Shown here in pieces: positions 1,615-57,802 of a stretch of 64,000 nt of DNA; position 1 is the stretch's first letter; each line of letters starts with the position of its first letter. The stretch comes from a virus. Lineage: Duplodnaviria; Heunggongvirae; Uroviricota; Caudoviricetes. A program made the position numbers and the translations under genes. The notes under the pieces were generated by a model, which was given only the letters and a program-made list of their open reading frames with translations, had not been told where the DNA came from and did no database searches. The stretch lies in IMG/VR virus record IMGVR_UViG_3300029718_000386. The stretch is one strand, 5' to 3'.

Positions 1615-2040
1615 TTATTTAGTTTTCCCATCTTTGAACAAGCCACTGCTGAATCCGCCAATACTCGGATCTTTGGCATTTGAATAGGTATAGGAGTGAT
1701 TTGGCACAGCCTGACCGACAAAATGAATGATAGCTCCGGATAAGTTGAAAATTACAAATACAGCAATAATTGTTGTTATAAATTTCAAAGCACCGGATAC
1801 GACCTTTTGATCTCGACTTACCATCACTTGAATAAGTGAGAAGCCTGTCGCAAGCACACATAGTGAATTAAACCAAGGAGAGATTTGGCCAATAATATTT
1901 TTTACTTCAGCCATACCTGCGGCTTGTGTTACTGATGGTGCTTTGGCAGCGTAAGCCATGCTCGGAAAACAAAGGAAAATTCCAAGGAATATCAGAGAAA
2001 AGATTGTTCCTAAGAGAATATTTTTCGATTTTTGTGTCAC
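1615..2040 (-). CDS. Second pilin-like small membrane protein, paralogous in architecture to 1120..1536.
   Basis: 141 aa with a GTG start. Signal peptide (SMAYAAKAP) followed by two TM helices. RBS GAAAGGGGTG. Confidence 0.35.
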   Translation of the reverse strand: MTQKSKNILLGTIFSLIFLGIFLCFPSMAYAAKAPSVTQAAGMAEVKNIIGQISPWFNSLCVLATGFSLIQVMVSRDQKVVSGALKFITTIIAVFVIFNLSGAIIHFVGQAVPNHSYTYSNAKDPSIGGFSSGLFKDGKTK

Positions 2041-2120
2041 AAATTCATCACCCCTTTCTAAGAAAAAAAGCGGGAAGGCACATCTGATAACTGTACCACT
2101 CCCGCCGTGTTGTTCGATTT

Positions 2121-2426
2121 TTCAATAAATTTGATCTGGAATGACCAGCACACAGACGGAGCCAAAGGCCCGGTCTGTGGTAAACCCACATCGTCAATGT
2201 TATGAATTGTTTGTTGTATACTGCACGTCTCCGACCCCATCAGAGATTTTTAACAACACACCGTAGTGCAAGGGGCTTGTGGAGCACCCCTTGGTACCTA
2301 TTTGGCAGCCGAGGCTGCCATTAAAACATAACGTAGCACTCGAAGTGCTTAGACTAATCAACTATGGACTTGCGATTACTCACAAGCCCAGACTGACTGT
2401 TTTACGGTCAGTCTGTGGTAATTGAC
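2121..2426 (-). ncRNA. Orphan copy of an approximately 306-nt structured RNA element (omega-RNA-like scaffold) with no adjacent iscB.
   Basis: About 95% identical to 25239..25544, which lies directly upstream of iscB. The differences include paired, compensatory changes in hairpins, for example ggacttgcg...cacaagccc versus gggcttgtg...tacaagcccc. The element ends exactly at the stop codon of the SpoVG-like gene. Confidence 0.4.
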
Positions 2427-2819: not shown

Positions 2820-3004
2820 CGAAATCCTCCTTTCATCGTATTGGATTGTTTTAAGTGTCTCGTGTATTTTTGCTCTGTGAACACAAGACACAAAAAATAA
2901 AAAGAAGGAGAACGCATTTCGTGCCAGTTATGGCAGCAGCATTCTCCTTGTTAAAATAATTATAACACTTTTGTGAATTTCGGACAAATTTTACAAATGA
3001 ACAG

Positions 3005-3040
3005 AAAAAAAGGCGACAGATTTCTCTGTCGCCTTTTTAT
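3005..3040 (-). terminator. Rho-independent terminator (bidirectional hairpin) after the vWA gene.
   Basis: aaaaaaaGGCGACAGatttctCTGTCGCCtttttatt. Perfect 8-bp stem flanked by A and T runs. Confidence 0.55.
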
Positions 3041-5250
3041 TATAAAAGCTTTTTTATTTTTGCCAGCAAAATTCTCGCTATTTCTGTCGGCAGTTTTTGT
3101 AGATCTCGACCGTCTACAAGTTCTTTGCCATAAATGGCTTGCAGATTATAAAAATCGTCGCCAATAGCGATAGGAATAATTGCAATATGTGATTTTTTAC
3201 ATATTTTGTTCAAATATTCCATATCGTGGACCATTTGTGTATGGCCGTAACCGGTACCATTCGGACGGCCATCTGACAAGACAAACAAAAACTTTTGTGT
3301 TTCTGGCCTCTTAACTAGCTTAGAAATGCCAAAACGAAGTCCATAGCCATCATGATTACAAGCATTATGTGCTTTCATAGACACAAGTTTTGAAGCATTG
3401 ATGTTGTTCTTGACGTCATCCATCTTCAGATACTCGTTAATCATAACACTTCCGTACTCACAGTGACCGTAAACTCCAAATGGAATTTTCAGCTCTCTGC
3501 AAAACGCTTCCAGACACATTGCTGCTAGTCTTGCTGCTTTCTCACGATCTCCGTCCATACTGCCAGATTCATCAACCATGATTTCGACAGCACACAGCGG
3601 ACGTTTTGTCGGTGCAGTGATATCCATAAATACTCTCTCTGAACCGGACGCATACGCATTGACATCCAACATAATGCCCTCATCTTGTTCATAGTAGATA
3701 TTCCCTTTTCGACGTTCCTTGAGAACTTTAAGGACTTTTTTGGCCAATGTTTTCGCAATTGCCTTCTCTTTTGATGTGAAAATTGCATTATAAGCATTTA
3801 CATCAGTCTCAAAATCTCTGCGAATACTGTGTGACAGATTTGCTACTCTGCCATCTTTGATAAATCTACCGAATTCATGGTTTTCATATTGTCGATTTAG
3901 AGCTTCCAGGTTTTGCTCTGCAAAGATCTTATTCAAAACTGATTCAGAAGATTTGTTGGCTTCGTTTTCGGCTTTTGCAAAAATATCCTGCAGTGCTTTG
4001 CTGAAAGCAGGATCAATAGGCGCTTGTTTGCTTTTATCTGTTTCTTCATTCTGTTGGCTCTGGCCGTCTGCCTTCTGATTTTTATTTTCAGAACTTTTTT
4101 GTTGCTTGTTTTGGGAACCAACGGCATTTTTGCCGTTAGTATCATTTTCACCAGATTCATCATTTGGAGAGCCCGTAGAAGCGCTTTCAGTGCCGTTTTC
4201 TTTGTTTTGCGAGTCAGTGCTAGGCTGTTCAGTCTTACTGCCTTCTGCGTCATTCTGAGAGCCTTCGAAGCCACTCTGATTGTCCTTGCTTGAATTGTCA
4301 GAAGAAGATTGGCTTGACTGAGCACTCTGTCTCTGATTGGCTTGACCAACCATTGTAGAACGCGATTGTCCTTGCCCATCCTCTTGCTCATTCATCTCAC
4401 TCTGGTCATCAGAGATTGCATTGTCATCTGCAAATTGAGACAACATATTGAGTGCCTGCTGGATTTTATCAGCTTGCTCAAAGTATTCATAAAAATACTT
4501 CCACAAGATCTGCATAATTTTTCCAACAACGTAAAGACGATCCTCATAATTTGGCATCGACTCCACAGCAAACAAAGGCTGCGTATCCTTTAATTCCGGA
4601 TACAACTTCAGACTTTCATCCGCAAAGCAACCTCTTGCCTGGCAAAGAAGCAAATTAAGCAATGCATTGACATCTTTGCTTTGAGTAGCCTCAGCTGAAA
4701 TATGTTGCCGCAGACGTTCTGTCAAAGCATCAACATAGCAAGCAAATCCAGGGTACTTTTGTACAGCAAGATACTCAATTACCGGGTCCTCAACAATGTT
4801 TGCAATCTCAAAAAACAGCTTATCAAATAGCGTTTTGGAAATCCCGTAAGATTTCTTTACTTCATCGGCTTGCTGAAAGCCGTCAAAATATTCGTCATAT
4901 GGAAAAGCTGTTTTCTTTTGCAGCTCCGCAGCTCTAGCGAAATCTGTGTGCAGCCCATGGCCAAACACTTCGTGTGTCAGCTTGCCAAGAGCAAGCTTTT
5001 TGCGCTCTACAAAGTTCAGACCTTCATCCAACACAGAGTCCAAATTGATGTAACACTCTTTGTCGGAAATCCAGGCAACATCTCCGTCAGGAGCAAAGTC
5101 TGTACGAATCGGTACAGACTTGAAACCATAATAGTTCAAACTGGAATTGGCCAGCCCTTGTAGGACTGACCGAAAACCAGATGCCTTAACTATTTCCTTG
5201 AGAGAAGTGTTTTCTTTCACAAACTCTCGAAGTTGTTTTTTATCCATCAT
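3040..5250 (-). CDS. vWA-domain protein with an N-terminal HExxH metallopeptidase-like domain and a long acidic/Q/S-rich linker (DUF2201-like partner of MoxR ATPases).
   Basis: HEVFGHGLH motif near the N-terminus. MIDAS-type vWA motif VDESGSMDG and later LSDG near the C-terminus. About 200 aa of low-complexity D/E/Q/S/N linker. Confidence 0.6.
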   Translation of the reverse strand: MMDKKQLREFVKENTSLKEIVKASGFRSVLQGLANSSLNYYGFKSVPIRTDFAPDGDVAWISDKECYINLDSVLDEGLNFVERKKLALGKLTHEVFGHGLHTDFARAAELQKKTAFPYDEYFDGFQQADEVKKSYGISKTLFDKLFFEIANIVEDPVIEYLAVQKYPGFACYVDALTERLRQHISAEATQSKDVNALLNLLLCQARGCFADESLKLYPELKDTQPLFAVESMPNYEDRLYVVGKIMQILWKYFYEYFEQADKIQQALNMLSQFADDNAISDDQSEMNEQEDGQGQSRSTMVGQANQRQSAQSSQSSSDNSSKDNQSGFEGSQNDAEGSKTEQPSTDSQNKENGTESASTGSPNDESGENDTNGKNAVGSQNKQQKSSENKNQKADGQSQQNEETDKSKQAPIDPAFSKALQDIFAKAENEANKSSESVLNKIFAEQNLEALNRQYENHEFGRFIKDGRVANLSHSIRRDFETDVNAYNAIFTSKEKAIAKTLAKKVLKVLKERRKGNIYYEQDEGIMLDVNAYASGSERVFMDITAPTKRPLCAVEIMVDESGSMDGDREKAARLAAMCLEAFCRELKIPFGVYGHCEYGSVMINEYLKMDDVKNNINASKLVSMKAHNACNHDGYGLRFGISKLVKRPETQKFLFVLSDGRPNGTGYGHTQMVHDMEYLNKICKKSHIAIIPIAIGDDFYNLQAIYGKELVDGRDLQKLPTEIARILLAKIKKLL

Positions 5251-5256
5251 TTCTCC

Positions 5257-6796
5257 TTAATTGAGACCCAAAATAGAGTCAAGTTTATCGCTGATAATTT
5301 CAGCATAACCATCCTCCAAAGAGGTCTTATTTTCAATTGTCAGGGCAGCAGACTGTCGTAAAGTCCCACCATTGAACTGGTAGTCATTAATACAATCAAT
5401 TGCCCCACGAATATCCGCAATGCCCTGCGTAATGCTTTGATCGCGGATGATTTCCTGCAACTCGCCAATGGCATGAATGACCTTGGCCACATCTTCCCTA
5501 TCGCCCTGATATCCGGTAACAGACATCACACGGTCAATCTGTTCAGAAACTGTCGGTGCGTCAATTTTCTTGACATAAGCAACACGGGACAGCAGGGACA
5601 GGTTAAAGGGATTGCATCCTTCGTAATCCACATTCGTTGTAAAAATGAATGTGGTGTTCGGATGAATGGGTACCTGCGCACCATTCGGCAAGATCAAAGT
5701 GCGATTGGAGTCTAATACGCAATTCAAAAAGCCAAGCGTACCGGCGTTGATAATTAGAGAGGGCTCCTGGATTTCAATTATCCAGCCGTAACGACAAGCC
5801 AATACCAGTTCCGTTAAGGAATACTGAATCTCATCGTTATCGATGCCAGTCACATCAACATCCTTTTTCCAAAGGCTTTTAACTGCCCGCTGAAAGAACT
5901 TCACAAGTGCTCCGTTAGAAGCAATTTTGTTAGGCTTACCACGCAGATCACTTTCGTTTGTCATCGCAGAACAACAAATGAAAGTATACGGAATTCCGGT
6001 CATCTTGCTGAAATATTTACCCATTTCAGACTTACCAGTTCCGGCAGGTCCATAAAAGAAGAAAGCAGGTGCCTTCCCCATCTTTTGGATGCCATTATAC
6101 AGACGAGACACAAACAGTTTATCGTTGTTTGTAGGAACATAACCTTCGACAAGCTGATTGGAAGCAATACGCTCCTTCTCAAACTTGTTGTAGGAATTTT
6201 CCTGTCTGATAGTCCAGTCTCGTTCGTTAAACGCAGGTACTGAATTGACAGTCTGCTTCGCATCCATCGGCAACGCCTTTGCAGAGATACCGAGACCGTT
6301 CACCGCATGTGGGTACGGAACTCCGTTGGCACACAAAGTTACAAGAGGCGTTAAGTTGTTCAAAAACGCCGGCAAAACAGGTCCGCTTAACGAGAGTGGA
6401 CGCCAAGGAACCATTCTAGAATTGCTATCTTCAAGATTAACAATCCTTTGTTCAATTTTTTCCTTGTCGAGTACAGATGAAACTTCCGTCATACAAGACG
6501 CAATGACAATAAACATTGCATCAACTGCTGACTCGCCACTAATAGTCCGTCTATCAAAGTAAATTTCACCTTGATACCAGCAGCCAGTGACTACCCGAGA
6601 CTTATAGGCGTACTGCAGTTCGACGGCTACAGCGCCTTGGTTAGATTCGGCAATAATAACACTAAGTTTTTTATCGCTGATCAAATTGAAAAAGTAATTA
6701 ATCAATTTGGCAACATTGTTTGCCCCATCGATGTTATTAGGAACCTCATTTGCTGCAGTCAATGCCGTTCGATTCCATTTTGTTCTATTTGCCATA
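5257..6796 (-). CDS. AAA+ ATPase, MoxR-like (AAA_5-type).
   Basis: Walker A GPAGTGKSE and a Walker-B-like WIIEIQE. Probable start MANRTKW (ATG around 6796, RBS GGAGGA). The longer ORF in the track starts further upstream without an RBS. Sits immediately upstream of, and is likely co-transcribed with, the vWA gene. Confidence 0.6.
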
Positions 6797-6917
6797 ATAA
6801 ATTTCCTCCTTAATAAAAAAGAGCCATCAGTAAAGAACTGACGACTCTTTTTGTTTTTAATGTTTATTTTTTTTATAACTATAACTTCTGTGCAAAAGCG
6901 CAGAATATAATTAACAC

Positions 6918-6930
6918 CATAATTATAACA
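6918..6930 (-). promoter_or_regulatory. One instance of a recurrent extended -10 promoter motif (coding-strand GTGTTATAATTAT, i.e. TGnTATAAT).
   Basis: Plus-strand ATAATTATAACAC. Similar instances at about 2958, 7958, 17713, 22139, 29916, 38838, 39815, 39960, 50556, 54972 and 55466. Most lie 40-140 nt upstream of a minus-strand start. Confidence 0.45.
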
Positions 6931-6986
6931 CAAAACGAAATCAAAACAAAAAAAGAGACGCATAAGCGTCTCTTTTTTATTATAGT

Positions 6987-7397
6987 TTAGAAGGGCAGAT
7001 CGTCGTCCTCGTCCACCTCTTCACCCACATCTTCGGATGCAGGCTCAGGCTTAGCAGCGGGCTTGGAAGCGCCACCGCCGTTCTGTCCACCAAAGGCCGT
7101 CAGGCCATTGACCAGTACACGGAAGTTCCGGCGCTGATGACCTTCCTTATCCGTAAATTCACTGAAATCGGGAGTGCCGGTTACAGTAACGGACATGCCC
7201 TTCTTCAGCCAACCCAGAGCACCGCTCTGCATACAGTCGAAGAAGTTAGCTTTGTCCTTGTTATAAGGCTGGCAGGCAACCGTATAGGTCGCGAACTCCT
7301 TGCCGGACTTGCCGATACGAACCTCTGCGTCTGCCACAAGACGCCCTGTAATCATAATGTTGGCGAGATCTCTGCCTCGATTTTCTTTATTTGCCAT
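6987..7397 (-). CDS. ssb: Single-stranded DNA-binding protein.
   Basis: OB-fold-like core, Gly-rich linker and the acidic C-terminal tail DEDDDLPF characteristic of SSB. Start MANKENRG with RBS AAAGGAG. Confidence 0.8.
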   Translation of the reverse strand: MANKENRGRDLANIMITGRLVADAEVRIGKSGKEFATYTVACQPYNKDKANFFDCMQSGALGWLKKGMSVTVTGTPDFSEFTDKEGHQRRNFRVLVNGLTAFGGQNGGGASKPAAKPEPASEDVGEEVDEDDDLPF

Positions 7398-7427
7398 AAT
7401 AATTCTCCTTTCTGGCAATTCGATATA

Positions 7428-10789: not shown

Positions 10790-12395
10790 TACAAAGTGAA
10801 TTACCACGTCTGACAGTCGCACACGCCAGTCAGGCGTGGCTTATGTTTTAAGCGACATGCAGCATTCACAGCTGTTCTATCCGCAGAGCGGACTACATGT
10901 TAAAAATATTTGTTAAGATATCCGGTCTTTCAAAGTTCACTTGCGTAAACAAATCCGGCAGCGCTTTTCTGCCAATATTGGCAGCAGCGTTCAGATCTGC
11001 ATTGATAATGGAGTCGTCTTGGTTACAATAAAGCCCTCTTTTTATGCGCCTGCCGGAGAACTTCAATGCATCATATTCTTCTTCTGATTGCTCTCCATAC
11101 ACCGGAATGTCATCTTTGTACTTAAAAGATGCCTGCGATGTAAAAGACTCTTCTTGATAAAGAATATTGATGCCATACTGCACAGCACGATACGCAATGA
11201 ACTTTTTAAGCAGATCAAACGGAATACCAACAAAACTTTGGTTGTTCTTTTTATCCATTTTGCTTGACTGTTTCCAGCCTTTGGTAGATCCAAGAATAAT
11301 TGTGTCAACATGATGATCTAAAGCATACTTGATGATATAGTCTGCGTATTTATGCATTACATCACGCATGAAGTTGTTTCTGTTGACCCAATTCTTCTGG
11401 TAGAGATCTAACAAAACGCCTTGGTCCTTTGCACTTTGCATTTGAGCATTTAGTTTGTTGAACCATTGATTTTTGGATTTTACAATTCCGCCCTTGATTA
11501 ACAGACCTTTATGGCCAAAGTTATTCGATATAGCTGCGAGATTGTCAACACCAAAATCAATGGCAATACAACGCTCCGGTTTATCAAAAATAATTCGCTC
11601 GTTGTTGTCATCTTGTTCAATTGGCTCAAATGCATTTGGAATTTCAAAAACAAAAGAAATGTAAAACACGTTAAAGTACGGTTTAATTGTTACAAATTTC
11701 AAACGACCAACAGGCGTTGTAATTTGACAAACTTCTTTTGTTCTTGGAAACTTTACAAAACAGATGCTATCTTGTTCTTTGACAACACATTCTTGATTAG
11801 ACAAACTGGCCGTGCACATACCGCCAGGCTTCTTGTAACCCGGTAGGCGCGGCGCGCCTGTAAAGGCTTGCTTATTCTTTGCGTATGCTTTGCAGCTTTT
11901 GCAATAGCCTTTCATATCCTGTACGGCTTGCTTAATTGTCTGTTGTGCTGTATGCCTCGGTAAATGTTGTGCGAAATAATCCACATTGCTGTTGTCGTGC
12001 AATAGTTTGTTCAACATACCGTATGACAAAAACCACTTCTTTGCCGTGGGCATACGATACGACGGATTGCAGTCTGTAAAATCTTTTAATTCATTTAAGA
12101 TTTCTTGCTCATTTGAAGTGATTGATTGTGGTAAACATTCCAACTTCTGCAATCCGGTCATTGTCTGTCGCATACGAAACAAGACAGCATTGTAAAGATT
12201 ATTTGCTGCATGGCAAACATCAGAACAATATGCATACAACTGATGCGTGTCTTTGATTTCTACCCGTAGAGTTTTGTACATACTACACCTCCTTTCTTAA
12301 GACTTTCACTTATTAATACTGCATTCGCAGAAAAACTTAAAATGCGCATTCATCCACGTCTGAGTCGTTGTTCAGGCGTGGTGTTCTGCGCAAAA
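10790..12395 (-). mobile_element. IS200/IS605-family tnpB-only element (IS1341-like). No tnpA anywhere in the window.
   Basis: Near-identical imperfect-palindrome hairpins flank the gene. 12354..12381 is ccacgtctga-N8-tcaggcgtgg and 10804..10839 is ccacgtctga-N16-tcaggcgtgg. The same single T/G mismatch in both is typical of IS200/605 subterminal structures. Confidence 0.5.
10893..12281 (-). CDS. tnpB: TnpB-like protein (RuvC-like, IS605 OrfB family) with an apparently degenerate RuvC-II glutamate and a lost C-terminal zinc finger.
   Basis: RuvC-I IAIDFGVDNLAA (Asp present). RuvC-III INADLNAAANIGRKA (Asp present). The region expected to read ...IVIEDLNVKGM instead reads TIILGSTKGW, with no acidic residue. 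The canonical TSxxCxxCG...CxxCG is replaced by TSQASFKYKDD...RGLYCNQ. RBS GAAAGGAGG. Confidence 0.75.
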   Translation of the reverse strand: MYKTLRVEIKDTHQLYAYCSDVCHAANNLYNAVLFRMRQTMTGLQKLECLPQSITSNEQEILNELKDFTDCNPSYRMPTAKKWFLSYGMLNKLLHDNSNVDYFAQHLPRHTAQQTIKQAVQDMKGYCKSCKAYAKNKQAFTGAPRLPGYKKPGGMCTASLSNQECVVKEQDSICFVKFPRTKEVCQITTPVGRLKFVTIKPYFNVFYISFVFEIPNAFEPIEQDDNNERIIFDKPERCIAIDFGVDNLAAISNNFGHKGLLIKGGIVKSKNQWFNKLNAQMQSAKDQGVLLDLYQKNWVNRNNFMRDVMHKYADYIIKYALDHHVDTIILGSTKGWKQSSKMDKKNNQSFVGIPFDLLKKFIAYRAVQYGINILYQEESFTSQASFKYKDDIPVYGEQSEEEYDALKFSGRRIKRGLYCNQDDSIINADLNAAANIGRKALPDLFTQVNFERPDILTNIFNM

Positions 12396-12497: not shown

Positions 12498-13324
12498 TTA
12501 TGTCAAGCGCGCAATTTTGCGTTTAATATGCTTTTTTGTTTTGTTCACTTCACCAATCATAATTGGAGAAGAAACGATACAATTAGTATGCTTGCCAACG
12601 AACTTATTGCCGCCTACGAAGCAGTATTGACACATTCCCTTGCAAGTATTTGGCAAACCCATATCAAAAACATCAATGTTTGCATCCTTTGAAACACCAC
12701 AGTGACACAGAATACTGCGCATAAGCTTTACAACTGAATTTTTTGTGCCTTTCGCGTAAACTGTAATTTGATATTTTTGTGCTATTTCTTGCATTTTAGA
12801 AAGCATTTTTGTTTTTGCGCCCATATCAACAACAGCAGAATACAGGCAAGCATGTATCGGTTGCTCAAAAGGTTCAACAAATTCAACGATGCACGCCCTA
12901 ACCGCACCGGATAGCTTTTGACACAAACTATCGAATTTCTTGAGATGATATTTCTCGCTATATTCATTATTGATGATAATCGGAGAATACTTCCAGACGA
13001 CACGGTGCGGATATTTCTTACCCAGTAATACCAGATCTTCTAAAACTTGTTTCTTATTAAGCCCCGGTTCCACATCTGCCTTATATGGCGTCAACGTAAC
13101 CATCGCTACAGATTGATATCCAAGCCTATCCAGATACTCAAAATCTTCAAAGAGATTATGCGGATCTTTAGTTTGAAAAACAACCAATTCAAAATTTTTG
13201 GGACTCAATTCGTAGATATTGTTTAATTTCTCTGTTTCAACCGCAAAATAGCCATCGTCAAACCTTTTTTGCAACCAGCCGTTGTAAAAACGAACTAAAT
13301 CAGTATTGTTACTTACATTTAAAA
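12498..13324 (-). CDS. Hypothetical protein with a C-terminal CxxxCxxC motif.
   Basis: Start MILNVSNN (RBS GAGG). The upstream part of the track ORF contains a terminator hairpin and is unlikely to be coding. Motif CKGMCQYC near the C-terminus. Confidence 0.4.
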
Positions 13325-13339
13325 TCATAAACAACCTCA

Positions 13340-13372
13340 AAACGAACTGGGACAAAGACATTGCCCTGTCCC
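13340..13372 (-). terminator. Terminator for gene 13505..13903.
   Basis: CTGGGACAaagacattgcccTGTCCCAG hairpin, followed on the minus strand by TTCGTTTTGAGG. Confidence 0.4.
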
Positions 13373-22749: not shown

Positions 22750-22825
22750 TGGTGGAAGCAGAGGGACTCGAACCCTCGACCTTCTGCTTGCAAAGCAGAT
22801 GCTCTCCCAGTTGAGCTATGCCCCC
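22750..22825 (-). tRNA. tRNA-Ala (anticodon TGC).
   Basis: RC sequence GGGGGCATAGCTCAACTGGGAGAGC...CTTTGCAA...GGTTCGAGTCC...CCA. G3:U70 pair present. CCA encoded. Confidence 0.8.
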
Positions 22826-22845
22826 AAATGAGAATCTTACCGAAA

Positions 22846-22921
22846 TGGTGGGAATAGTAGGTCTCGAACCTACGACCTCCTGCTTGTAAGGTAGGCGCTC
22901 TCCCAGCTGAGCTATATTCCC
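22846..22921 (-). tRNA. tRNA-Val (anticodon TAC).
   Basis: Cloverleaf with anticodon loop CTTACAA. One A-C mismatch in the anticodon stem. T-loop TTCGAGA. Confidence 0.6.
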
Positions 22922-22924
22922 AAA

Positions 22925-23000
22925 TGGTGCTGGATCTCGGACTTGAACCGAACACCTCTGCGTTACGAAGGCAGCGCTCTACCAGATGAGCTAATCCAGC
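22925..23000 (-). tRNA. tRNA-Thr (anticodon CGT).
   Basis: GCTGGATTAGCTCATCTGGTAGAGC...TTCGTAA loop...GGTTCAAGTCC...CCA. Confidence 0.55.
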
Positions 23001-23008
23001 GAAATGAG

Positions 23009-23084
23009 TGGTGCCACAGGCTGGAGTCGAACCAGCGACGCTCGGTTCTTCAGACCGACGCTCTACCTGCGGAGCTACCGTGGC
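23009..23084 (-). tRNA. tRNA-Phe (anticodon GAA).
   Basis: Anticodon arm TCGGTCTGAAGAACCGA. T-arm GGTTCGACTCC. CCA encoded. Confidence 0.75.
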
Positions 23085-23087
23085 ATA

Positions 23088-23163
23088 TGGTGCGAAATGC
23101 AGGACTTGAACCTACAACCTACGGCTTATCGAGCCGTTGCTCTACCAGTTGAGCTAATTTCGC
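23088..23163 (-). tRNA. tRNA-Ile (anticodon GAT).
   Basis: Anticodon arm ACGGCTCGATAAGCCGT. D-arm AGCTCAACTGGTAGAGC. Confidence 0.75.
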
Positions 23164-23164
23164 A

Positions 23165-23240
23165 TGGTGATCGCAGTGGGATTCGAACCCACGATACAGG
23201 TTAGAAAGACCTGCGGCTTAGACCGCTTGCCGATGCGACC
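23165..23240 (-). tRNA. tRNA-Glu-like (anticodon TTC), atypical.
   Basis: Anticodon arm CAGGTCTTTCTAACCTG with U at position 37. Unusual D-arm. Confidence 0.45.
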
Positions 23241-23245
23241 GAAAA

Positions 23246-23322
23246 TGGTGAACGCACTGAGATTCGAACTCAGACTCTGCGGTTAGAGAGACCGCCATGT
23301 TAGCCTATTACACTATGCGTCC
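23246..23322 (-). tRNA. tRNA-Glu-like (anticodon CTC), atypical.
   Basis: Anticodon arm GCGGTCTCTCTAACCGC with U at position 37. Non-canonical D-arm without GG. Confidence 0.4.
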
Positions 23323-23325
23323 AAA

Positions 23326-23401
23326 TGGAGCAGGTGATCAGATTCGAACTGATGAATAATGGGTTTGCAGCCCACGCCGTTAGCCTCTTCGGCACACCCG
23401 C
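23326..23401 (-). tRNA. tRNA-Cys (anticodon GCA).
   Basis: Anticodon arm GTGGGCTGCAAACCCAT. D-arm GCCGAAGAGGCTAACGGC. Confidence 0.7.
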
Positions 23402-23408
23402 AAAAATA

Positions 23409-23484
23409 TGGCTCCCACGGCCAGACTTGAACTGACAACTTCCTGATTAACAGTCAGGCGCTCTACCGATTGAACTACGTGGGA
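23409..23484 (-). tRNA. tRNA-Asn (anticodon GTT).
   Basis: Anticodon arm CCTGACTGTTAATCAGG. T-loop TTCAAGT. Confidence 0.75.
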
Positions 23485-23488
23485 ATGT

Positions 23489-23566
23489 TGGCAGGGGCGG
23501 AGCGACTTGAACACTCGTGCCATGGTTTTGGAGACCAGGCGATTTCCTGTTATCTTTACGCCCCTG
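23489..23566 (-). tRNA. tRNA-Trp-like (anticodon CCA).
   Basis: Anticodon loop CTCCAAA on a 4-bp stem plus a mismatch. Acceptor pairing is somewhat irregular. Confidence 0.45.
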
Positions 23567-23572
23567 TATGTT

Positions 23573-23647
23573 TGGGTGGAATCCCGGGAGTCGAACCCGG
23601 ATTACTTGTACCACAAACAAGCGTGCTACCGTTACACCAGAAACCAC
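23573..23647 (-). tRNA. tRNA-His (anticodon GTG).
   Basis: Anticodon arm CTTGTTTGTGGTACAAG. Extra 5' G(-1) opposite C73. The acceptor stem carries two U-U mismatches. Confidence 0.6.
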
Positions 23648-23729
23648 ATTTTTAAAATACGTATGTTTTGATTTTGCAACTACAATGTAGAGCCGGGCTA
23701 AACATACAAAACAACTTCTACCCTTATGG

Positions 23730-23819
23730 TGGTCGGAGATGAGGGAATCGAACCCACTCGAATGCCTAAGCACACCAGTTTTACAGACTGGGGTATCTAC
23801 CTTAATACTTTAACCTCCG
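23730..23819 (-). tRNA. tRNA-Tyr (anticodon GTA), class II with a long variable arm.
   Basis: Anticodon arm CCAGTCTGTAAAACTGG. About 90 nt. Confidence 0.6.
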
Positions 23820-23842
23820 ATTTATTAAATTGTCGCAGAATA

Positions 23843-23869
23843 CCACGCCTGAACAACGGTTCAGACGTG
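23843..23869. repeat. IS200/605-like subterminal hairpin, approximately the reverse complement of the tnpB-element hairpins.
   Basis: ccacgcctgaa-caacg-gttcagacgtg, located 12 nt downstream of the iscB stop. Confidence 0.3.
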
Positions 23870-23880
23870 AATAAATACAA

Positions 23881-25224: not shown

Positions 25225-25238
25225 AAGATATGGCTCCT

Positions 25239-25560
25239 TTCAATAAATTTGGTCTGGAATGACCAGCGCACAGACGGAGCCAAAGGCCCGGTCTGTGGTA
25301 AACCCACATCGTCAATGTTATGAATTGTTTGTTGTGTACTGCACGTCTTCGACCCCATCAAAGATTTTTAACAATACACCGTAGTGCAAGGGGCTTGTGG
25401 AGCACCCCTTGGTACCTATTTGGCAGCCGAAGCTGCCATTAAAACATAACGTAGCACTCGAAGTGCTTAGACTAATCAACTATGGGCTTGTGATTTCTTA
25501 CAAGCCCCAACTGACTGTTTCACGGTTAGTCTGGGGTAATTGACAGTCAGGACCGCTACC
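25239..25560 (-). ncRNA. Candidate omega-RNA of the IscB element: about 306 nt of scaffold (25239..25544) plus a putative guide segment (25545..25560).
   Basis: Conserved structured element immediately 5' of the iscB RBS and start, in the same orientation. A second copy at 2121..2426 shows covariation. Multiple hairpins are visible, for example GGGCTTGTgatttcttACAAGCCC and GGTGCTCCacaagCCCCTTGCACTACGG. Confidence 0.55.
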
Positions 25561-25584
25561 GTTACGGAATATCGACGCATATAC

Positions 25585-25672
25585 TGGTGCTGATAGTGGG
25601 AGTCGAACCCACACGGTGTTGCCACCATCGGGGCTTAAACCCGATGCGTGCTGCCAATTTCGCCATATCAGC
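25585..25672 (-). tRNA. tRNA-Leu (anticodon TAA), class II.
   Basis: Anticodon arm TCGGGTTTAAGCCCCGA. Long variable arm. T-arm GTGGGTTCGACTCCCAC. CCA encoded. Confidence 0.7.
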
Positions 25673-25738
25673 ACATATGAATAGCCACACCTGATAGCCA
25701 TGCACGCCATTCAGCGTGGCTTTTTGCGTTTATCATCA

Positions 25739-26233
25739 TTATTTGGTAATCCGATCCGCAATTGTACTGGCTACAAATGAATTTGGCTTGGTTTCAACAT
25801 TGTAGCCGCAAGAGCGGATCCAACTTACCAGCCCAGGAATAAGATCCTTTGTTTTTCCGTTAACCGAATTTCCAGCATCAATATGAATTGACAATGGACA
25901 TTCTGCAAACATCTCTCTATATATTGCCTTACCCTCAAACATGTCTACCAGTTCCCCGGCCAAAGTTAAGCTGGCAGCAGTTTCAGTTTGCAATTTGAGT
26001 TTTACATTTTGGATCAAGTTCTCACGAGAAATTTCATAAAAGAAGATACCTCCATGTCCATGGGCAATAACTGCAATAACAGATACCATTTTTGTATTAT
26101 TGAAATTTTGACTATCTGTGCCGACAATGATACTGATTTGATCTGTTTGTGCTTTATTACGCCGGTAATAAGCCAAGATAGCATCTGGAATTTCTGTAAG
26201 CTGTATTGAATTCCCTGAACCGGTACAAAACAT
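25739..26233 (-). CDS. RNase H-fold protein (YkuK/DUF458-like), embedded in the tRNA array.
   Basis: 164 aa. Motifs IVGTDSQ, HGHGGIFFYEI and HIDAGNS are consistent with a D/E/D RNase-H-like active-site arrangement. The assignment is tentative. Confidence 0.35.
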   Translation of the reverse strand: MFCTGSGNSIQLTEIPDAILAYYRRNKAQTDQISIIVGTDSQNFNNTKMVSVIAVIAHGHGGIFFYEISRENLIQNVKLKLQTETAASLTLAGELVDMFEGKAIYREMFAECPLSIHIDAGNSVNGKTKDLIPGLVSWIRSCGYNVETKPNSFVASTIADRITK

Positions 26234-26257
26234 TGGACATACCCTCCTTATAATTTT

Positions 26258-26343
26258 TGGCGGCGATGGAAGGATTCGAACCTTCGAGCCTTACGACTAA
26301 CGCGTTAGCAGTGCGCCGGTTTCAACCACTCACCCACATCGCC
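26258..26343 (-). tRNA. tRNA-Ser (anticodon GCT), class II.
   Basis: Anticodon loop CTGCTAA with an A-C at the stem base. Long variable arm. T-arm GGTTCGAATCC. Confidence 0.65.
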
Positions 26344-26347
26344 AAAA

Positions 26348-26423
26348 TGGTGCGCCGTTTGGGGTTCGAACCCAAGACCTCCAGATTAAGAGTCTGTTGC
26401 TCTACCGACTGAGCTAACGGCGC
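26348..26423 (-). tRNA. tRNA-Lys (anticodon CTT).
   Basis: GCGCCGTTAGCTCAGTCGGTAGAGC...CTCTTAA loop...GGGTTCGAACCCC. Confidence 0.65.
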
Positions 26424-26427
26424 ATAA

Positions 26428-26504
26428 TGGTCTGGACAACAGGATTCGAACCTGCGGTCTCCGGATCCCAAATCCGGCGCTTTACCAAACTAAGCTATAT
26501 CCAG
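26428..26504 (-). tRNA. tRNA-Pro (anticodon TGG).
   Basis: Anticodon arm CCGGATTTGGGATCCGG. Confidence 0.75.
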
Positions 26505-26591
26505 ATGACAAAATACATGCAGACAGATCAGATTTGCCGTGAAATATGTGCTCGACCACAGCAAGAATTCGATCTGATTTTGTCTGCATAT

Positions 26592-26666
26592 TGGCACCGC
26601 CTGCAGGATTTGAACCCGCATTACAAGGTCCGTAGCCCTGTGTTCTGTCCTTTGAACTAAAGCGGT
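26592..26666 (-). tRNA. tRNA-Arg (anticodon ACG).
   Basis: Anticodon arm CAGGGCTACGGACCTTG. D-arm GTTCAAAGGACAGAAC. Confidence 0.75.
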
Positions 26667-26671
26667 GTATA

Positions 26672-26747
26672 TGGTGCCCCTACGAAGATTTGAACTCCGA
26701 ATTGGGGATTAGAAGTCCCCTGTTTTATCCAGATTAGACTATGGGGG
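26672..26747 (-). tRNA. tRNA-Arg (anticodon TCT), acceptor stem irregular.
   Basis: Anticodon arm GGGGACTTCTAATCCCC. T-arm CGGAGTTCAAATCTTCG. The 5' and 3' acceptor strands pair imperfectly as read. Confidence 0.5.
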
Positions 26748-26751
26748 TATA

Positions 26752-26826
26752 TGGAAGCGATGCCGGGGATCGAACCCAGAATGCAAGAGTCAAAGTCTCG
26801 TGTTTTGCCGATTAGACTACATCGCC
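26752..26826 (-). tRNA. tRNA-Gln (anticodon TTG).
   Basis: Anticodon arm CGAGACTTTGACTCTTG. T-arm GGGTTCGATCCCC. Confidence 0.7.
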
Positions 26827-26945
26827 ATATAAGAGCAGGTTTTTCATTGACTGGGACACACACCCAAAATCGGGTGGAGGTGCGCAACGCTTCTCGTACT
26901 GCTATCTCGGCAATACCGAACGAGGCGAGTCCGGAACTCGCAAAT

Positions 26946-27031
26946 TGGCACTGGATAAGGGACTTGAACCCTTACGATCTAAATCAACGGATTTTGAATC
27001 CGTCGCGTCTGCCAAATTCCGCCAATCCAGT
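26946..27031 (-). tRNA. tRNA-Leu (anticodon CAA), class II.
   Basis: Anticodon arm ACGGATTCAAAATCCGT. D-region TGGCGGAATTTGGCAG. Confidence 0.75.
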
Positions 27032-27046
27032 ATTTACATGAAAAAG

Positions 27047-27133
27047 TGGCGGGGCGTCAGGGACTCGAACCCTGAAGGCTGTTACACCCAACGGTTTTCA
27101 AGACCGCACGACTACCAATTATCACAACGCCCC
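27047..27133 (-). tRNA. tRNA-Ser (anticodon TGA), class II.
   Basis: Anticodon arm GCGGTCTTGAAAACCGT. Long variable arm. Confidence 0.7.
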
Positions 27134-27227
27134 ACATATGCGGCAGACTGATATCGATCTGTTATAAGAACATTGGGAGAGGTGAATCACCCCTCTTATG
27201 CAGGAACTCCTAAGTTACCTTGTTACA

Positions 27228-27304
27228 TGGCGACTCCGACCAGGCTCGAACTGGCAACCTCCAGCGTGACAGGCTGGCGCTCTACTCTTTTGAACTACGG
27301 AGCC
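27228..27304 (-). tRNA. tRNA-Asp (anticodon GTC).
   Basis: Anticodon arm CCAGCCTGTCACGCTGG. T-arm CCAGTTCGAGCCTGG. Confidence 0.8.
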
Positions 27305-27307
27305 AAA

Positions 27308-27393
27308 TGGTGCTCGATAAGAGATTCGAACTCTTACATCTTTCGATACCAGATCCTAAATCTGGCGCGTCTGCCAAATTCCGCCAATCGAGC
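27308..27393 (-). tRNA. tRNA-Leu (anticodon TAG), class II.
   Basis: Anticodon arm CCAGATTTAGGATCTGG. D-region matches the Leu(CAA) gene. Confidence 0.75.
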
Positions 27394-27406
27394 AAATGAA
27401 TAATAA

Positions 27407-27482
27407 TGGTGCGCCGTCAGAGAATTGAACTCTGGACCTTTAGATTATGAGTCTACTGCTCTAACCACTAAGCTAACGGCAC
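27407..27482 (-). tRNA. tRNA-Met (anticodon CAT), elongator-like.
   Basis: Anticodon loop CTCATAA. D-arm AGCTTAGTGGTTAGAGC. Confidence 0.65.
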
Positions 27483-27495
27483 AAACAACACAAAA

Positions 27496-27571
27496 TGGTG
27501 CGCGCACGGGGACTCGAACCCCGGACCAATGGATTAAAAGCCCACTGCTCTACCAACTGAGCTATGCGCAC
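27496..27571 (-). tRNA. tRNA-Lys (anticodon TTT).
   Basis: Anticodon arm GTGGGCTTTTAATCCAT. D-arm AGCTCAGTTGGTAGAGC. Confidence 0.7.
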
Positions 27572-27687
27572 ATATTGGTTACATCTATTAATACCACAAA
27601 TTACAAAAAAACAAAAAATGACCGGCTCAACAACGAAAGTTTTGATCGCGTTGAAAACCGGCCAAGGTGCAATGAAAAAATCCAAAG

Positions 27688-27764
27688 TGGAGCAGATAAG
27701 GGGATTTGAACCCCCACCACCGGTTTGGAAGACCGGGATGCTGACCATTGAACACCATATCTGC
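27688..27764 (-). tRNA. tRNA-Gly (anticodon TCC).
   Basis: Anticodon arm CCGGTCTTCCAAACCGG. T-arm GGGGGTTCAAATCCCC. Confidence 0.8.
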
Positions 27765-27769
27765 ATAAG

Positions 27770-27845
27770 TGGTGCTGGATATCTGACTCGAACAGATTAC
27801 CTTCGGGTTACAAAGCCGATGTTCTACCAGGTGAACTAATCCAGC
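27770..27845 (-). tRNA. tRNA-Thr (anticodon TGT).
   Basis: Anticodon loop TTTGTAA with a C-C at the stem base. T-arm CTGTTCGAGTCAG. Confidence 0.65.
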
Positions 27846-27874
27846 ATTTAGGCGCCTATGAAGGCGCTTGGATT

Positions 27875-28192
27875 TTAGGGCAAAATACACTCCAAAAAGT
27901 GATGCAAATCAGGCATCGGAATGTATTCCCGCCGCACCTCAGCAATGTCCTTGCCGTCGCGATCATGCGGCAAGGCGTTATATTCTTTGACATAATTTTG
28001 CACAAGAGTATTGAGCAATTCTTGTTTCTTCTCTACCAGCTGCTTGCACTGGCGCAGAGACTCAACCGCAGAGACAATCTCATTTTCCTTTTCTCTGCGA
28101 ACGTTTTCTCTGTCCTGTAAAGCGTTCTCAGCTGTTTTTAGCTGCTCTTCAGTGTCATATAGTTCTTTAGTCAATTCTGAAAAATATTTCAT
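27875..28192 (-). CDS. Coiled-coil hypothetical protein.
   Basis: 105 aa, E/K/Q-rich heptad-like sequence. Confidence 0.4.
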   Translation of the reverse strand: MKYFSELTKELYDTEEQLKTAENALQDRENVRREKENEIVSAVESLRQCKQLVEKKQELLNTLVQNYVKEYNALPHDRDGKDIAEVRREYIPMPDLHHFLECILP

Positions 28193-28568
28193 ATTTGTAC
28201 CTCTCTTAAAAATAATTCAAACCTTTGAGTATTACGATAGCAGTTATCAGTAAAATGATAATCCTACTTAACCATAAAACCCACTGTCTACTCGAAACAC
28301 GCAGTGCATAAACGCACACAGATGTTGTTAGCGTAATGGCTATAAGCCAAATGAGACGATTAGTCTCCAAACCACATCGTGCACCACTTCAAGATGCCCT
28401 CAACGTCTGGATCTACATGCTCTTTATTCTTGCAGGCGTTAACGATTAAATCAAACGCCTTTGCCTTATCGGCTGGCTTCATTTCAGTCAATGTTTCAAA
28501 ATCTTTTTCAATCAATGTTTATTACCTCTTTTGACAAATATTGTTGCACATTTGCCCGTGCCAGGCTT

Positions 28569-28644
28569 TGGGCCCGGGAGTGGGATTCGAACCCACGACT
28601 GTTGGCGTATGAGGCCAACCTGCTAACCGCTGCATTATCCCGGT
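28569..28644 (-). tRNA. tRNA-Met (anticodon CAT), possibly initiator-like (unpaired 1:72).
   Basis: Anticodon arm TTGGCCTCATACGCCAA. T-arm GTGGGTTCGAATCCCAC. A1 opposite G72. Confidence 0.5.
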
Positions 28645-40385: not shown

Positions 40386-43300
40386 TTACCACGGAGAAGT
40401 CTCACGTGTCTTGAAGTCGTCAAACAGGCTTCCGTTGATCTTTACGGCGTTTGAATCACCAACATAGCTTAACATACCACTTGGCGTCCAGCAATCAGCA
40501 ACACGAACCTGGATCTTATAGTCCGTATCGTTTGGATACCATACCGGGACATGGTGCAGTGAACGTGCGCTGCTGTCCTCATCCTCATATTCCATAAACT
40601 TAAACCAATATGGATTTTCGTTCGTGTTGGCACCAGTGGGACGCAATGATGCATAAGGTCCAAAATACTTTCTGTCAGTTGGAGCCGATTTGAGTCCATA
40701 CATCGCATACAACGCCGAGTATTTACCATTGATTGTCTGGTAATTGTACTCTGGATAATACGCCAATGCAGATTGCGCGTTTACGCAACTACCATCTGGT
40801 AAAGCAGGATCTGTCTTACGCTGTGGCGTTAAGTTCGCTGTTGCTCGACTCTCAAGACTGTAACCGCTCTTGGTTTCCCAGTAATTCTCGTCTCCATTGT
40901 TTTCGACTTTTTTGCTTGGGTTCTGAGCACTGCCTGCACCGGCAGATGCTAGCGGTTTTAACAGATTCTCTTGGAAGCCAAGTCTTGCTGTGTAAGTATG
41001 CAGTTTAAACACTCCATTTTCGCAGGTGTATTCCTGCCATGAAGTCGTGTTCGCATACGGCTTGTCATTTGTCGGATCTTTATAAGAATATCCATCTCCA
41101 CCGTTCAGGTTATAACCTTCATAATTTGTGGAGCTTGTATTATCAAGATCGTTAAGCTGCACAAGGTTTTTGTCTTGCCGCCCTGAGTCGCAATACACAA
41201 ACTGTCCATTCTCTTCGTCATTATAACGTAGCTGAACCCACGGTACGACACCATAGAACTTGTATCCCAATGATTCATAAGAGTCGTCAATTGAACTAAC
41301 AGCAGGCGTTCTAACAGTATAATAAATCAGATTGTTCTTTGCAGCCGGTACTACAGCGGTTCTGGCGGCGTACTGACAGTTGTATCGACCAATCAATTTC
41401 TTATCGTATTTGACTTCCACATTTTCAATGGCTTCATACTGCCACTCTCCTGTGTTTAAATTATACAATTTGGCATACAGACCACCGGTCGCATTCAAAG
41501 CATTTTGATCGGTGAAGTTTTCAGTGCTGTGGTTGTCTACGATAAAGGACGTTACAACATCCGTGCCATATGAATATTTTGCATTTGGATATTGGAATTT
41601 AACATCCACAGGCAAATACTTTTCATTGACATAACAACCAACGTTGTAAGTAGCACCTTTACTTCCGTCTGTCGGAACCCCACCAAACAAACCAATGTGC
41701 TTTTTATCTGAATCTTTATGTCCTGGTACTTCATAGCACAATTGATACTTTAAATTTGCTGTACCACTTGGCCCACACCCAAACCACATTGTTGATGGTT
41801 CCAAATAATACGCTGTCAGAGAATCTAAAAGCTCTTTCGGGAAGTAATAGCTAAATACAAATGGGAAATCTTCTTTGTTATAGTAAGAAGAAATCTTTGT
41901 GTTTGCTTGTACTCCGCTTGAAATAGCAAATCCCATGTTTTCAATTTGCTCTTCTGGACTCAATGCAAAGACCTCTCCAAACTGTGCTGCCCAAGAGTTT
42001 TCATCGATCGTATCGCGATTTGTTTCCGGTCCGTACAGCATTTTCGCAAACTCTAATTCCGTCATTGTGTCGGAGCTAACATTTTTCTCTTTTACCGCAC
42101 TGTCTGGGATTGCATACGGCAATAGATCCACCTGTCTCTTTAATGGGTCAATCGGATCCGTAGAGCCACCAGCTGTTTCATATGCTTCTTTTGACAGATA
42201 GGTGTTGACGACTATGCCAGCCGTACACTCGACGTCAAATGAGTGGTCTGCAGTAATATTTTCAAAGGTATAGCTACCACCACTCCAGTATTTATAAACG
42301 TCACTGATTGTTTTTTCAGTGTCGAGTCCTTTATCAATCACAATCTTACTTACCATAAATCCGTCATTAGGTGTAAACTCAATGTTTTTTGTTTCACCAT
42401 ACTTGATTTTGGTAATTGTATCTGTGATTGTGCCGTTTGTGATGCTTGTTGTAATAGTGTATGTTCTTGTACAAACAACATCAACTGTATGGTCAGCGCT
42501 CAAAGTTCCGGGAATTGAAACTTTACCGCTCTTGGTGTCACCCGTCCATACCAATTGTGCGCCTGTTAACTTTTCTCCAGAATTTAATTCCTTTCCATCA
42601 ATTTTAACAGAAGTGATCTGATAACCAGGATCCGGCGTAAATGTAACAACAGAGTCAGCACCCGCGATATTTTTGTAATTACCAGCACGTAATCCAGTCA
42701 CCGTTTTGGTAATTGTACCATTCTGAATACTGGTCTTTATCTGATAAGTTTTCAGATCCATTTCGGCTGTATAATGTTCTACGGTGTCATAACCAAGAGG
42801 CTTTGAGCCTTGGACATCACTCTTAAATGAAAAAATGTTGTTCGCAGTTGTTCCATTTGGTGTCACACGAGTTGATGTTCCAAACAAGCCAAACAGTCTA
42901 CGGTCATCATTTTCAAGTGCCTTATCCACAGAGGACAAAAGACGTACACTCATCTTGTATGGATGTGTGTTCTTTGGATAAGCCGGATTACTGCCATCAT
43001 TATCTTCAAGCTTATATCCGACATAAATGAAGTTTGACTTACCAAAATCCTTCGTGGCGGCGTCTAAAGAGCAGTTTGCGTTTAGAGTATAGATATAGCC
43101 ATCTGCATCCGTCAGAAGATCGTTACCCTCGTTCATAACAGTAGCATTACCATCTGGAGAAACATTATAGTCCTTAAGCACCGCTAACGGTGTTGCAATT
43201 TTGCTTGTGTACAAATTCAAATACTGAAGCGTATTATCCAAAGTTACACGAGCGGTTGCGTTTTGAGCGTCCTCTCGGCTTGTAACCTGAGCAGTTGCAA

Positions 43301-57379: not shown

Positions 57380-57802
57380 TTAGTCGCATACTAGACACAA
57401 ATCGGAATAACCACCACGGTCGATCCAGCAATAAGAAATTCTGGTTCTACCATAATCAGTAACCATGAGATCCATCAAGCTTTCGTGATCTTCAGCGTAT
57501 TCAAACCATGAATTTTTAAAGTCTTTGTAATAATAATTCGACTTAGGATTACTGCTAAGAGTTCTAAACGAATGATTCTTTACAGCAACATCATATTCAT
57601 GTGTTCCGGCATCGATCTTACGTACAGTTACAGTCTTTTTGTAACCGTATTTCTTTGCTACTTCATTTGTGGGTTTAAGCACATTATCAACAACCCACTG
57701 CTTTTGAGCAGCCGTCAGGCTCTCTGAAGTGTCTTCCAGGACCTTCACCATCTGAATATCCGTCCAAGCTGAATATGACGATAGGTAGCCCTTTGATATC
57801 AT
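57380..57802 (-). CDS. Hypothetical protein.
   Basis: 140 aa. Terminator GACCCACCaaaGGTGGGCC at about 57335..57360. Confidence 0.35.
   Translation of the reverse strand: MISKGYLSSYSAWTDIQMVKVLEDTSESLTAAQKQWVVDNVLKPTNEVAKKYGYKKTVTVRKIDAGTHEYDVAVKNHSFRTLSSNPKSNYYYKDFKNSWFEYAEDHESLMDLMVTDYGRTRISYCWIDRGGYSDLCLVCD

Follow-up and report, generated by a model that had tools for sequence, protein, structure and literature searches.

The locus considered here raises the question of why an omega-RNA-like element should stand directly behind a SpoVG-like gene with no nuclease gene next to it, 23 kb from the single iscB gene of the same DNA. It lies in a 64,000-nt stretch recorded as DNA of a virus of the Caudoviricetes (IMG/VR record IMGVR_UViG_3300029718_000386), which is called the window below; the orphan element is called copy A and its iscB-linked counterpart copy B. 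A sequence-only reading of the window had proposed that copy A is a stand-alone omega-RNA that borrows the single IscB in trans, what is left of an IscB element after loss of its ORF, or a structured RNA family that IscB has co-opted. Our analysis supports the second proposal: with a probability of about 0.85, copy A is the surviving 5′ part of a second, independent ISC/IscB insertion whose nuclease gene was lost by deletion.

A repeat finder detected a two-copy direct repeat in the window (2120-2419 versus 25238-25537, 95% identical), and full alignment of copy A (2120-2426) with copy B (25238-25544) extended it to 307 nt with 16 substitutions and no indels, or 94.8% identity. The RNA strand is the minus strand in both copies, as expected from the earlier description of a second copy of ~306 nt, ~95% identical and in the same orientation. 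On that strand identity begins with the letters GTCAATTACC (window positions 2426 and 25544) and ends with ...AAATTTATTGAAA (2120 and 25238). Both copies match the HEARO family of Rfam over the entire model (positions 1-211 of 211; copy B at 25298-25544), with scores (Table 1) that compare with a gathering score of 83 bits. HEARO is the RNA that is now called the IscB omega-RNA. Copy A is an ordinary full-length member of this family, which disposes of the proposal that IscB had co-opted a separate structured RNA; a new RNA class was likewise rejected on the strength of the full RF02033 match. The predicted fold of copy A is strong overall (z = -5.3), and its 3′ tail folds at -23.5 kcal/mol (z = -3.6).

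Table 1. Coordinates in the window of the features discussed in the text, with the evidence for each
Feature	Position	Strand	Evidence
ORF141, signal-peptide membrane protein	1615..2040	-	paralogue of VirB2/TrbC-like ORF138
Terminator-like hairpin GGCGGGAG...CUUCCCGC with U7 run	2063..2106	-	sequence, fold
Omega-RNA repeat 3′ tail, copy A: 12-bp hairpin and small stem-loop, last letters TTGAAA	2120..2179	-	alignment, fold
Omega-RNA (HEARO) scaffold, copy A	2180..2426	-	Rfam RF02033, 119.3 bits
Guide position of orphan omega-RNA A, TCCGCAGGCTGCGTAA	2427..2442	-	directly 5′ of HEARO model start
SpoVG-like gene, 130 aa	2427..2819	-	Pfam PF04026 SpoVG, 2.5e-8
Sigma-70-like promoter TTGTCC, 17-nt spacer, TG-TATAAT	2959..2987	-	consensus scan only
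TnpB-only IS605-type element, 462-aa TnpB	10796..12395	-	inverted repeat, sequences, empty sites
IscB element 3′ terminus, 12-bp hairpin CACGTCTGAACC/GGTTCAGGCGTG, last letters ..TTAATAAAT	23820..23880	-	similarity limit, fold
iscB gene, 447 aa	23881..25224	-	Pfam RRXRR 7e-60 and HNH
Omega-RNA copy B, 5′ end of complete IscB element	25238..25544	-	HEARO 131.1 bits and element comparison
tRNA-Tyr(GTA) 5′ half, cut in anticodon loop by IscB element	25545..25578	-	intact tRNA of IscB-less strains

Copy B is followed by GGAG and then by the ATG of iscB. The encoded protein matches OgeuIscB and other IscB chains in the PDB (E 1e-43), its homologues are annotated 'RNA-guided endonuclease IscB', its IDAG, VETANF, HH...N...H and HYNDAY motifs align with the RuvC and HNH catalytic motifs of OgeuIscB, and this IscB, 23 kb from copy A, looks catalytically competent. 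Relatives occur at three unrelated sites in other large elements (L030 and L032, 82-83% identical; L074, 96%), and the DNA similarity of these loci to the window extends from exactly 25544, where the scaffold has its first base, as far as 23820, 61 nt past the iscB stop codon, at a 3′ terminus with a fold z of -5.1. The element delimited in this way comprises 1,725 bp (omega-RNA, iscB and the 61-nt 3′ end) and by its organization is an ISC-type, non-autonomous IS200/IS605 element. It has no transposase gene of its own, and Pfam Y1_Tnp had no match among the ~20 window ORFs scanned. The element type occupies four different sites with identical ends; at the window's site it is absent from seven loci, where the site is empty, and IscB is present on 24 of 24 contigs read with the window's exact helicase allele. 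Across the collection, IscB was found in 83 blocks and the exact RNaseH-like neighbour protein in 506. Five insertion sites are compatible with the motif G|TAA(A/C) at the iscB-distal end, a position in which the motif would serve as a TAM located 3′ of the target.

The two termini of a TnpB-only element in the window resemble the ends of the IscB element read in antisense: the hairpin upstream is the reverse complement of the one at the IscB 3′ end, and the sequence at the downstream end, GGTAATTCAC, is similar to GTCAATTACC in reverse complement. The TnpB-only element too is missing from some relatives, where two loci show an empty site (L052 and L053, around 10900-10950), and that the IscB and TnpB insertions are both polymorphic indicates recent activity. 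Termini shared in antisense orientation are known from ISC/IS605B pairs (Kapitonov et al. 2016, PMC4810608). The copy B element resembles the ISC transposons described there in this respect, its partner being the TnpB-only element on the same replicon, as well as in its length of 1.7 kb, its content of iscB only, its subterminal hairpins, the lack of a target duplication and its insertion beside a short 3′-end motif (compatible G|TAAA, five sites); copy A differs from them in comprising only the 5′ 18% of the element. The L074 locus is a 141-kb contig (ERZ28574261 scaffold_48) with a full-length sister element at 5681-7420, at an unrelated site. Nearby (13244-13344) it holds a second TnpB gene and a Y1_Tnp (TnpA) gene, the latter 6 kb from the element and a candidate source of transposase for the IscB element family.

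The site of the complete element is itself of interest, and we regard the interruption of a tRNA-Tyr gene by an IscB element as a more unusual observation than copy A. In IscB-less strains an intact tRNA-Tyr(GTA) directly follows tRNA-Leu(TAA) (L036, L038-L042 and L044, around 5655-5741). In the window only a 34-nt 5′ half of this tRNA remains, of which the last 16 nt occupy copy B's guide position; the original 3′ half has disappeared, and a different, complete tRNA-Tyr(GTA), called by ARAGORN and below the Rfam tRNA threshold, stands after the IscB element (23730-23819, minus). Because the end of the 5′ half coincides with the guide position, the copy B guide would match the intact tRNA-Tyr (then TAAAT) of IscB-less siblings, and the replacement tRNA-Tyr of the carrier lacks this target. 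The window's 27 tRNA genes form two minus-strand arrays (22750-23819 and 25585-28644) with encoded CCA ends; they cover 19 of 20 amino acids, with no tRNA-Trp called, and are unusual cargo for a conjugative-type element.

We take the replicon to be either an unbinned segment of a genome or a large extrachromosomal element of conjugative type. Exact proteins of the region occur on 0.2-1.1 Mb contigs in many human-gut assemblies, and precomputed Pfam matches of the neighbouring genes include a Toprim_2/DUF3991 primase-like protein, SSB, a PIF1/UvrD-like helicase, a topoisomerase and a sigma-70 factor, together with PrgI, a TraC/TraG-like ATPase, an M23 peptidase, and prepilin and signal peptidases; a YidC-like protein and a caspase-like peptidase are also encoded in the window. 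No phage structural genes were present among the ~20 window ORFs scanned. Searches of INPHARED phages with the window and copy A (megablast/blastn) returned nothing beyond a weak and partial HEARO-like match in a Parabacteroides phage, and no close relatives were found in the phage collection or in GTDB genomes; the sole match in a topoisomerase search was 57% identical, in a Candidatus Gastranaerophilaceae MAG. A 22-mer of the omega-RNA found nothing in IMG/VR and a 20-mer nothing in GTDB genomes, and in metagenome contigs the 20-mer matched three stretches, namely two copy-A variants and one chance match.

Several other features of the region were observed in passing. Group II intron domains are recognized by Rfam on the minus strand (D1-D4 at 58326-58521, D5/6 at 57775-57859); the only ORF of at least 120 aa between the pieces is one of 140 aa (57380-57802), there is no obvious reverse-transcriptase gene there, and a flanking 606-aa ORF has fibronectin type III (fn3) repeats. 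A 3,358-aa ORF (40386-50462, minus) shows a weak double zinc ribbon match as its sole Pfam trace. One locus (L029:1718-2222, ERZ28566427 scaffold_358) lacks the pair of AAA_5 and CobT-like VWA genes (window 3040-6963) in the interval between the SSB and SpoVG-like genes. In another (L006:17472-20214, ERZ827365 NODE_18), GGDEF, FUR and ZnuA genes replace PrgI and the TraC/TraG-like gene downstream of the M23 peptidase gene; the difference in this block means either that the conjugation module varies or that the contig brings together separate contexts.

The surroundings of copy A are those of an insertion at the end of a gene. Its first base (2426) lies one base past the TAA of the SpoVG-like ORF (2428-2430), so that the 5′ boundary proposed at this stop codon is correct to about one base, and copy A is effectively the 3′ UTR of the SpoVG-like gene. 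The guide position consists of the final 13 nt of the ORF and its TAA and abuts the start of the HEARO model, in agreement with the suggestion that the guide would read the 3′ end of that gene. It is identical in 26 of 26 loci with the SpoVG-like gene, the exact protein product of which is present in 104 blocks of the collection; its only other match in the window is a near-palindromic self-match, and the eight matches of the 16-mer in IMG/VR all lie in unrelated contexts and are attributed to chance. The promoter-like site (Table 1) is located upstream of the SpoVG-like gene, past the terminator of the preceding gene (3007-3038), and no terminator separates the SpoVG-like gene from copy A. 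On its other side, copy A was said to run straight into the RBS of the next gene. In fact a 79-nt spacer with the terminator-like hairpin and U7 run intervenes before AGAAAGGGG (RBS) and the GTG of ORF141 at 2040; a simple terminator scan missed the hairpin because its loop is long. ORF141 has no Pfam match, and the description of this gene as pilin-like is reasonable given its paralogy to ORF138 (E 2e-9), which is itself weakly TrbC/VirB2-like (E 0.005, below the cut-off). Where iscB usually follows an omega-RNA directly, as it does at copy B, copy A is followed by the terminator-like hairpin and the pilin-like ORF. By alignment, no iscB sequence lies 3′ of copy A in the window, as had been noted, although one related strain does keep a remnant of the iscB 3′ end there.

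That strain provides the intermediate that identifies the origin of copy A. The window's copy A comprises no more than the initial 307 nt of the 1,725-bp element and ends at the base directly before the iscB RBS, the breakpoint being 2120/2119, where GGAG would come next. In L016 (ERZ28619225 scaffold_238, 3701-3800), an allele known from a single metagenomic contig, a 93-nt stretch comes after copy A; it shares 85% identity with window 23913-23821 and consists of the last ten codons of iscB (~30 nt), its stop codon and the hairpin-bearing 3′ terminus. The sequence then continues as AATTAAGAAATCGAACAAC..., the same flank as that after copy A in the window. Because this flank follows the 3′ terminus of the element in L016, the hairpin region at 2063..2106 represents the terminator region native to the SpoVG-like gene, and the remnant and flank together indicate that a full element once lay between the SpoVG-like stop codon and this terminator. 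These observations bear out the proposal that copy A is the remnant of an IscB element without its ORF. L016 retains two termini with hairpins, and its orphan is in effect an ORF-less mini element of ~400 bp (omega-RNA and both ends) that TnpA could in principle move. A mini element with both ends (PATE) was rejected for the window, where the 3′ terminus is absent and nothing resembling it follows copy A.

Further copies occur both with and without iscB, among them the 22 loci that span the copy A site and the IscB-linked L030, L032 and L074, and comparison with these distinguishes a second insertion from a duplication. The remnant in L016 is identical to L074 at 81 of 90 positions and to copy B at 76 of 90, and the omega-RNA of copy A is 97.7% identical to that of L074 and 94.8% identical to that of copy B. 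Since both the remnant and the omega-RNA are nearer to L074, copies A and B are separate insertions of two related circulating elements; duplication within the replicon was rejected as the source of the copies on the same grounds. Polarized by the outgroups L030, L032 and L074, the 16 differences between the copies arose mostly in B, with about five on the A lineage (positions 11, 37, 114, 277 and 293). L016 keeps the ancestral bases at 277 and 293 and therefore fits as the older allele.

We propose that an IscB element inserted directly after the SpoVG-like stop codon, upstream of the gene's terminator, that an internal deletion then took out iscB, leaving ~30 nt of the gene and the 3′ terminus as in the L016 allele, and that the window allele subsequently lost the 3′ terminus and the adjacent TAAA-type motif as well; this order of the two deletions is the one that we infer. 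Because the 3′ terminus and the motif are gone, copy A of the window is no longer movable by a TnpA transposase. Homologues of the SpoVG-like protein were near-identical ones only, and no distant relative with an empty site was found among them. Two observations speak against a simple relic: the deletion alleles are nested, with 5′ breakpoints that agree to 1-2 nt and coincide exactly with the omega-RNA end, and most stem substitutions keep pairing.

Whether copy A has been under selection was examined in its variation. It is complete in all 22 loci that span the site (307 nt, no indel), and four more contigs (L020-L023) break inside the repeat. The orphan variants tested score 117.8-121.4 bits with HEARO, and the IscB-linked copies 127.9-137.1 bits (roughly 7-19 bits higher). 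Nucleotide diversity of copy A is 0.014, compared with 0.017 both at third codon positions of the SpoVG-like gene and in the upstream intergenic region, and 0.05-0.09 at third codon positions of the two downstream genes. The sequence-only reading had counted about 15 differences between the copies, close to the 16 found, and saw in several of them paired changes that preserve hairpins. This second part was overstated, as the change at 184/196 (C:G versus U:A) is the sole true compensatory double change, and the outgroups place it in copy B. Five other differences are one-sided G:U wobble changes, those at 11 and 37 jointly shift a bulge, and the others are unpaired or pair-breaking. Polymorphisms in stems are mostly G:U-compatible transitions, with one variant (L026) breaking a pair. 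In a shallow alignment of 14 distinct copies (98% mean identity, 99.1% of cells paired), 1 of 103 pairs had changed on both sides, a value reached by 97 of 500 shuffles; selection on RNA structure, which the paired changes had been taken to indicate, is thus unsupported statistically. Neither diversity nor covariation reveals constraint beyond the neutral proxies, and the intactness of copy A needs no selection, because it diverges by only ~2% from a live full-length relative. Constraint on copy A is neither shown nor excluded by these data.

A functional alternative must nevertheless be weighed, in which copy A works as a guide RNA in trans. To judge from the sequence, its RNA would probably arise by read-through transcription from the SpoVG-like promoter up to the native terminator, and it would have the end of the SpoVG-like gene as its 5′ flank, like the flank-derived guides of native loci. 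In carriers of the complete IscB element 23 kb away, such an RNA could load onto IscB in trans and would direct it to TCCGCAGGCTGCGTAA(G) if then followed by TAAA, which is the uninterrupted SpoVG site, with a predicted target form of TCCGCAGGCTGCGTAAG then TAAAA. If copy A were maintained for this function, IscB would cut siblings or sister copies that lack the SpoVG-site insertion, and cutting would either force repair from the insertion-bearing copy (drive or retention) or eliminate competitors. The indel-free scaffold in 22 copies, the pairing kept in most stem polymorphisms, deletion alleles that both stop precisely at the omega-RNA 3′ end, a transcription-unit context made up of consensus matches (promoter-like site, hairpin and U7) and an intact IscB with a 95% identical scaffold are all consistent with maintenance. 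There is precedent as well, in that stand-alone omega-RNAs working with IscB in trans are on record (PMC9581776) and plasmid gene drive by TnpB is reported (PMC11870625). However, an insertion-free SpoVG allele was not found: in 26 of 26 loci with the guide next to the SpoVG-like gene, the scaffold follows the guide. Since the target is seen in no strain, the RNA of copy A most likely has nothing to cut today. Furthermore, copy A persists in L053 together with the 3′ part of an uninterrupted tRNA-Tyr, a part that is present in 7 of 7 IscB-less loci and absent from 17 of 17 IscB-containing loci; L053 therefore most likely lacks IscB at site B, although the states of copy A and site B in one locus are linked only indirectly, via this strain. 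Set beside diversity at the level of neutral proxies, covariation that is not significant and a divergence from a circulating full-length element so small that intactness needs no selection, these findings make a maintained trans omega-RNA an unlikely but serious candidate, and current guide activity of copy A is doubtful to a similar degree.

It is quite unlikely that the two copies matter mainly as recombining 307-bp direct repeats, through gene conversion and occasional deletion or excision of the 23 kb between them. One contig (ERZ28634221 scaffold_27) does carry a copy B with G, C, G and T at 170, 184, 196 and 209, the bases of the copy A on that contig, among which T209 is A-specific. 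This hybrid, which is the part of the earlier suggestion of repeat-mediated recombination that found some support, comes from a single contig and may be an assembly chimera of a 95% repeat, inside which several contigs (L020-L023) in fact break. The suggested excision fared less well: tRNA-Leu or the half tRNA-Tyr was joined to ORF141 in none of the loci examined, and neither loss of the 23 kb nor an excision junction was seen in them. A deletion of this interval would probably be lost, because it holds primase-like, helicase, topoisomerase and SSB genes.

Very unlikely, in our estimation, is that both omega-RNAs and the single IscB form a competition or drive system of a giant conjugative gut replicon. 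Under such a scheme, guide B would match the intact tRNA-Tyr of the commoner IscB-less siblings, the IscB-bearing version carrying a replacement tRNA-Tyr without the target, and guide A would mark the junction of the SpoVG-like and pilin-like genes. After conjugation into a cell with a sibling, IscB would cut that sibling at one or both sites, which would convert or destroy it, and copy A would be retained because it provides another cut site and spares the replicon the burden of another nuclease gene. Finally, the idea that the omega-RNA fold was taken over, independently of IscB, as a 3′ UTR or insulator of the SpoVG-like gene, stabilizing its mRNA or separating it from the pilin-like genes, is barely credible: copy A does lie exactly between stop codon and terminator, is fixed in every strain with the SpoVG-like gene, persists in a probable IscB-less strain and folds strongly, but any insertion there would share its position, loss of the ends needed for excision explains fixation equally well, and nothing specific supports the idea.

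The decay of an IscB insertion, which remains the preferred reading, makes copy A a stand-alone omega-RNA, a known kind of object, rather than a new class of RNA. Such omega-RNAs without an ORF were reportedly described for OMEGA/IscB systems by Altae-Tran et al. in 2021 (as cited in PMC9581776). Copy A resembles these in its full HEARO scaffold, its flank-derived guide position, the lack of an adjacent iscB and the presence, at another place on the replicon, of an IscB whose scaffold is almost identical. It differs in that its origin can be traced to deletion, since an intermediate allele survives, and in that it has lost the 3′ terminus of the element and is immobile; its trans activity is putative. 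The protein-less IS200/IS605 derivatives termed PATEs, the described ones being related to ISGst1 and ISGst5 of Geobacillus, likewise encode omega-RNAs and need a nuclease in trans (Meers et al., 10.1101/2023.03.14.532601). The L016 allele is like them, being ~400 bp of omega-RNA and 3′ terminus with no ORF that would need both nuclease and transposase in trans, whereas copy A of the window has no 3′ terminus and hence is not a PATE. With solo ends and fossil IS fragments, copy A shares the retention of one end, the loss of the coding gene and fixation in its lineage, but the end retained is a complete guide-RNA gene inside a host transcription unit.

As it stands, copy A is an ordinary decay product of a known element and opens no new question. 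The locus does display the birth of a stand-alone omega-RNA as a series, from the full element (L074-type) through the omega-RNA with the 3′ end (L016) to the omega-RNA alone (window), with the three stages found in one population of a large human-gut replicon that also carries polymorphic IscB and TnpB insertions. Should IscB prove to load copy A in trans, this would exemplify in nature a single nuclease that also serves an immobile second guide RNA, and such loading, if true, would be a small step towards the CRISPR-like arrangement of separate guide genes and a nuclease.
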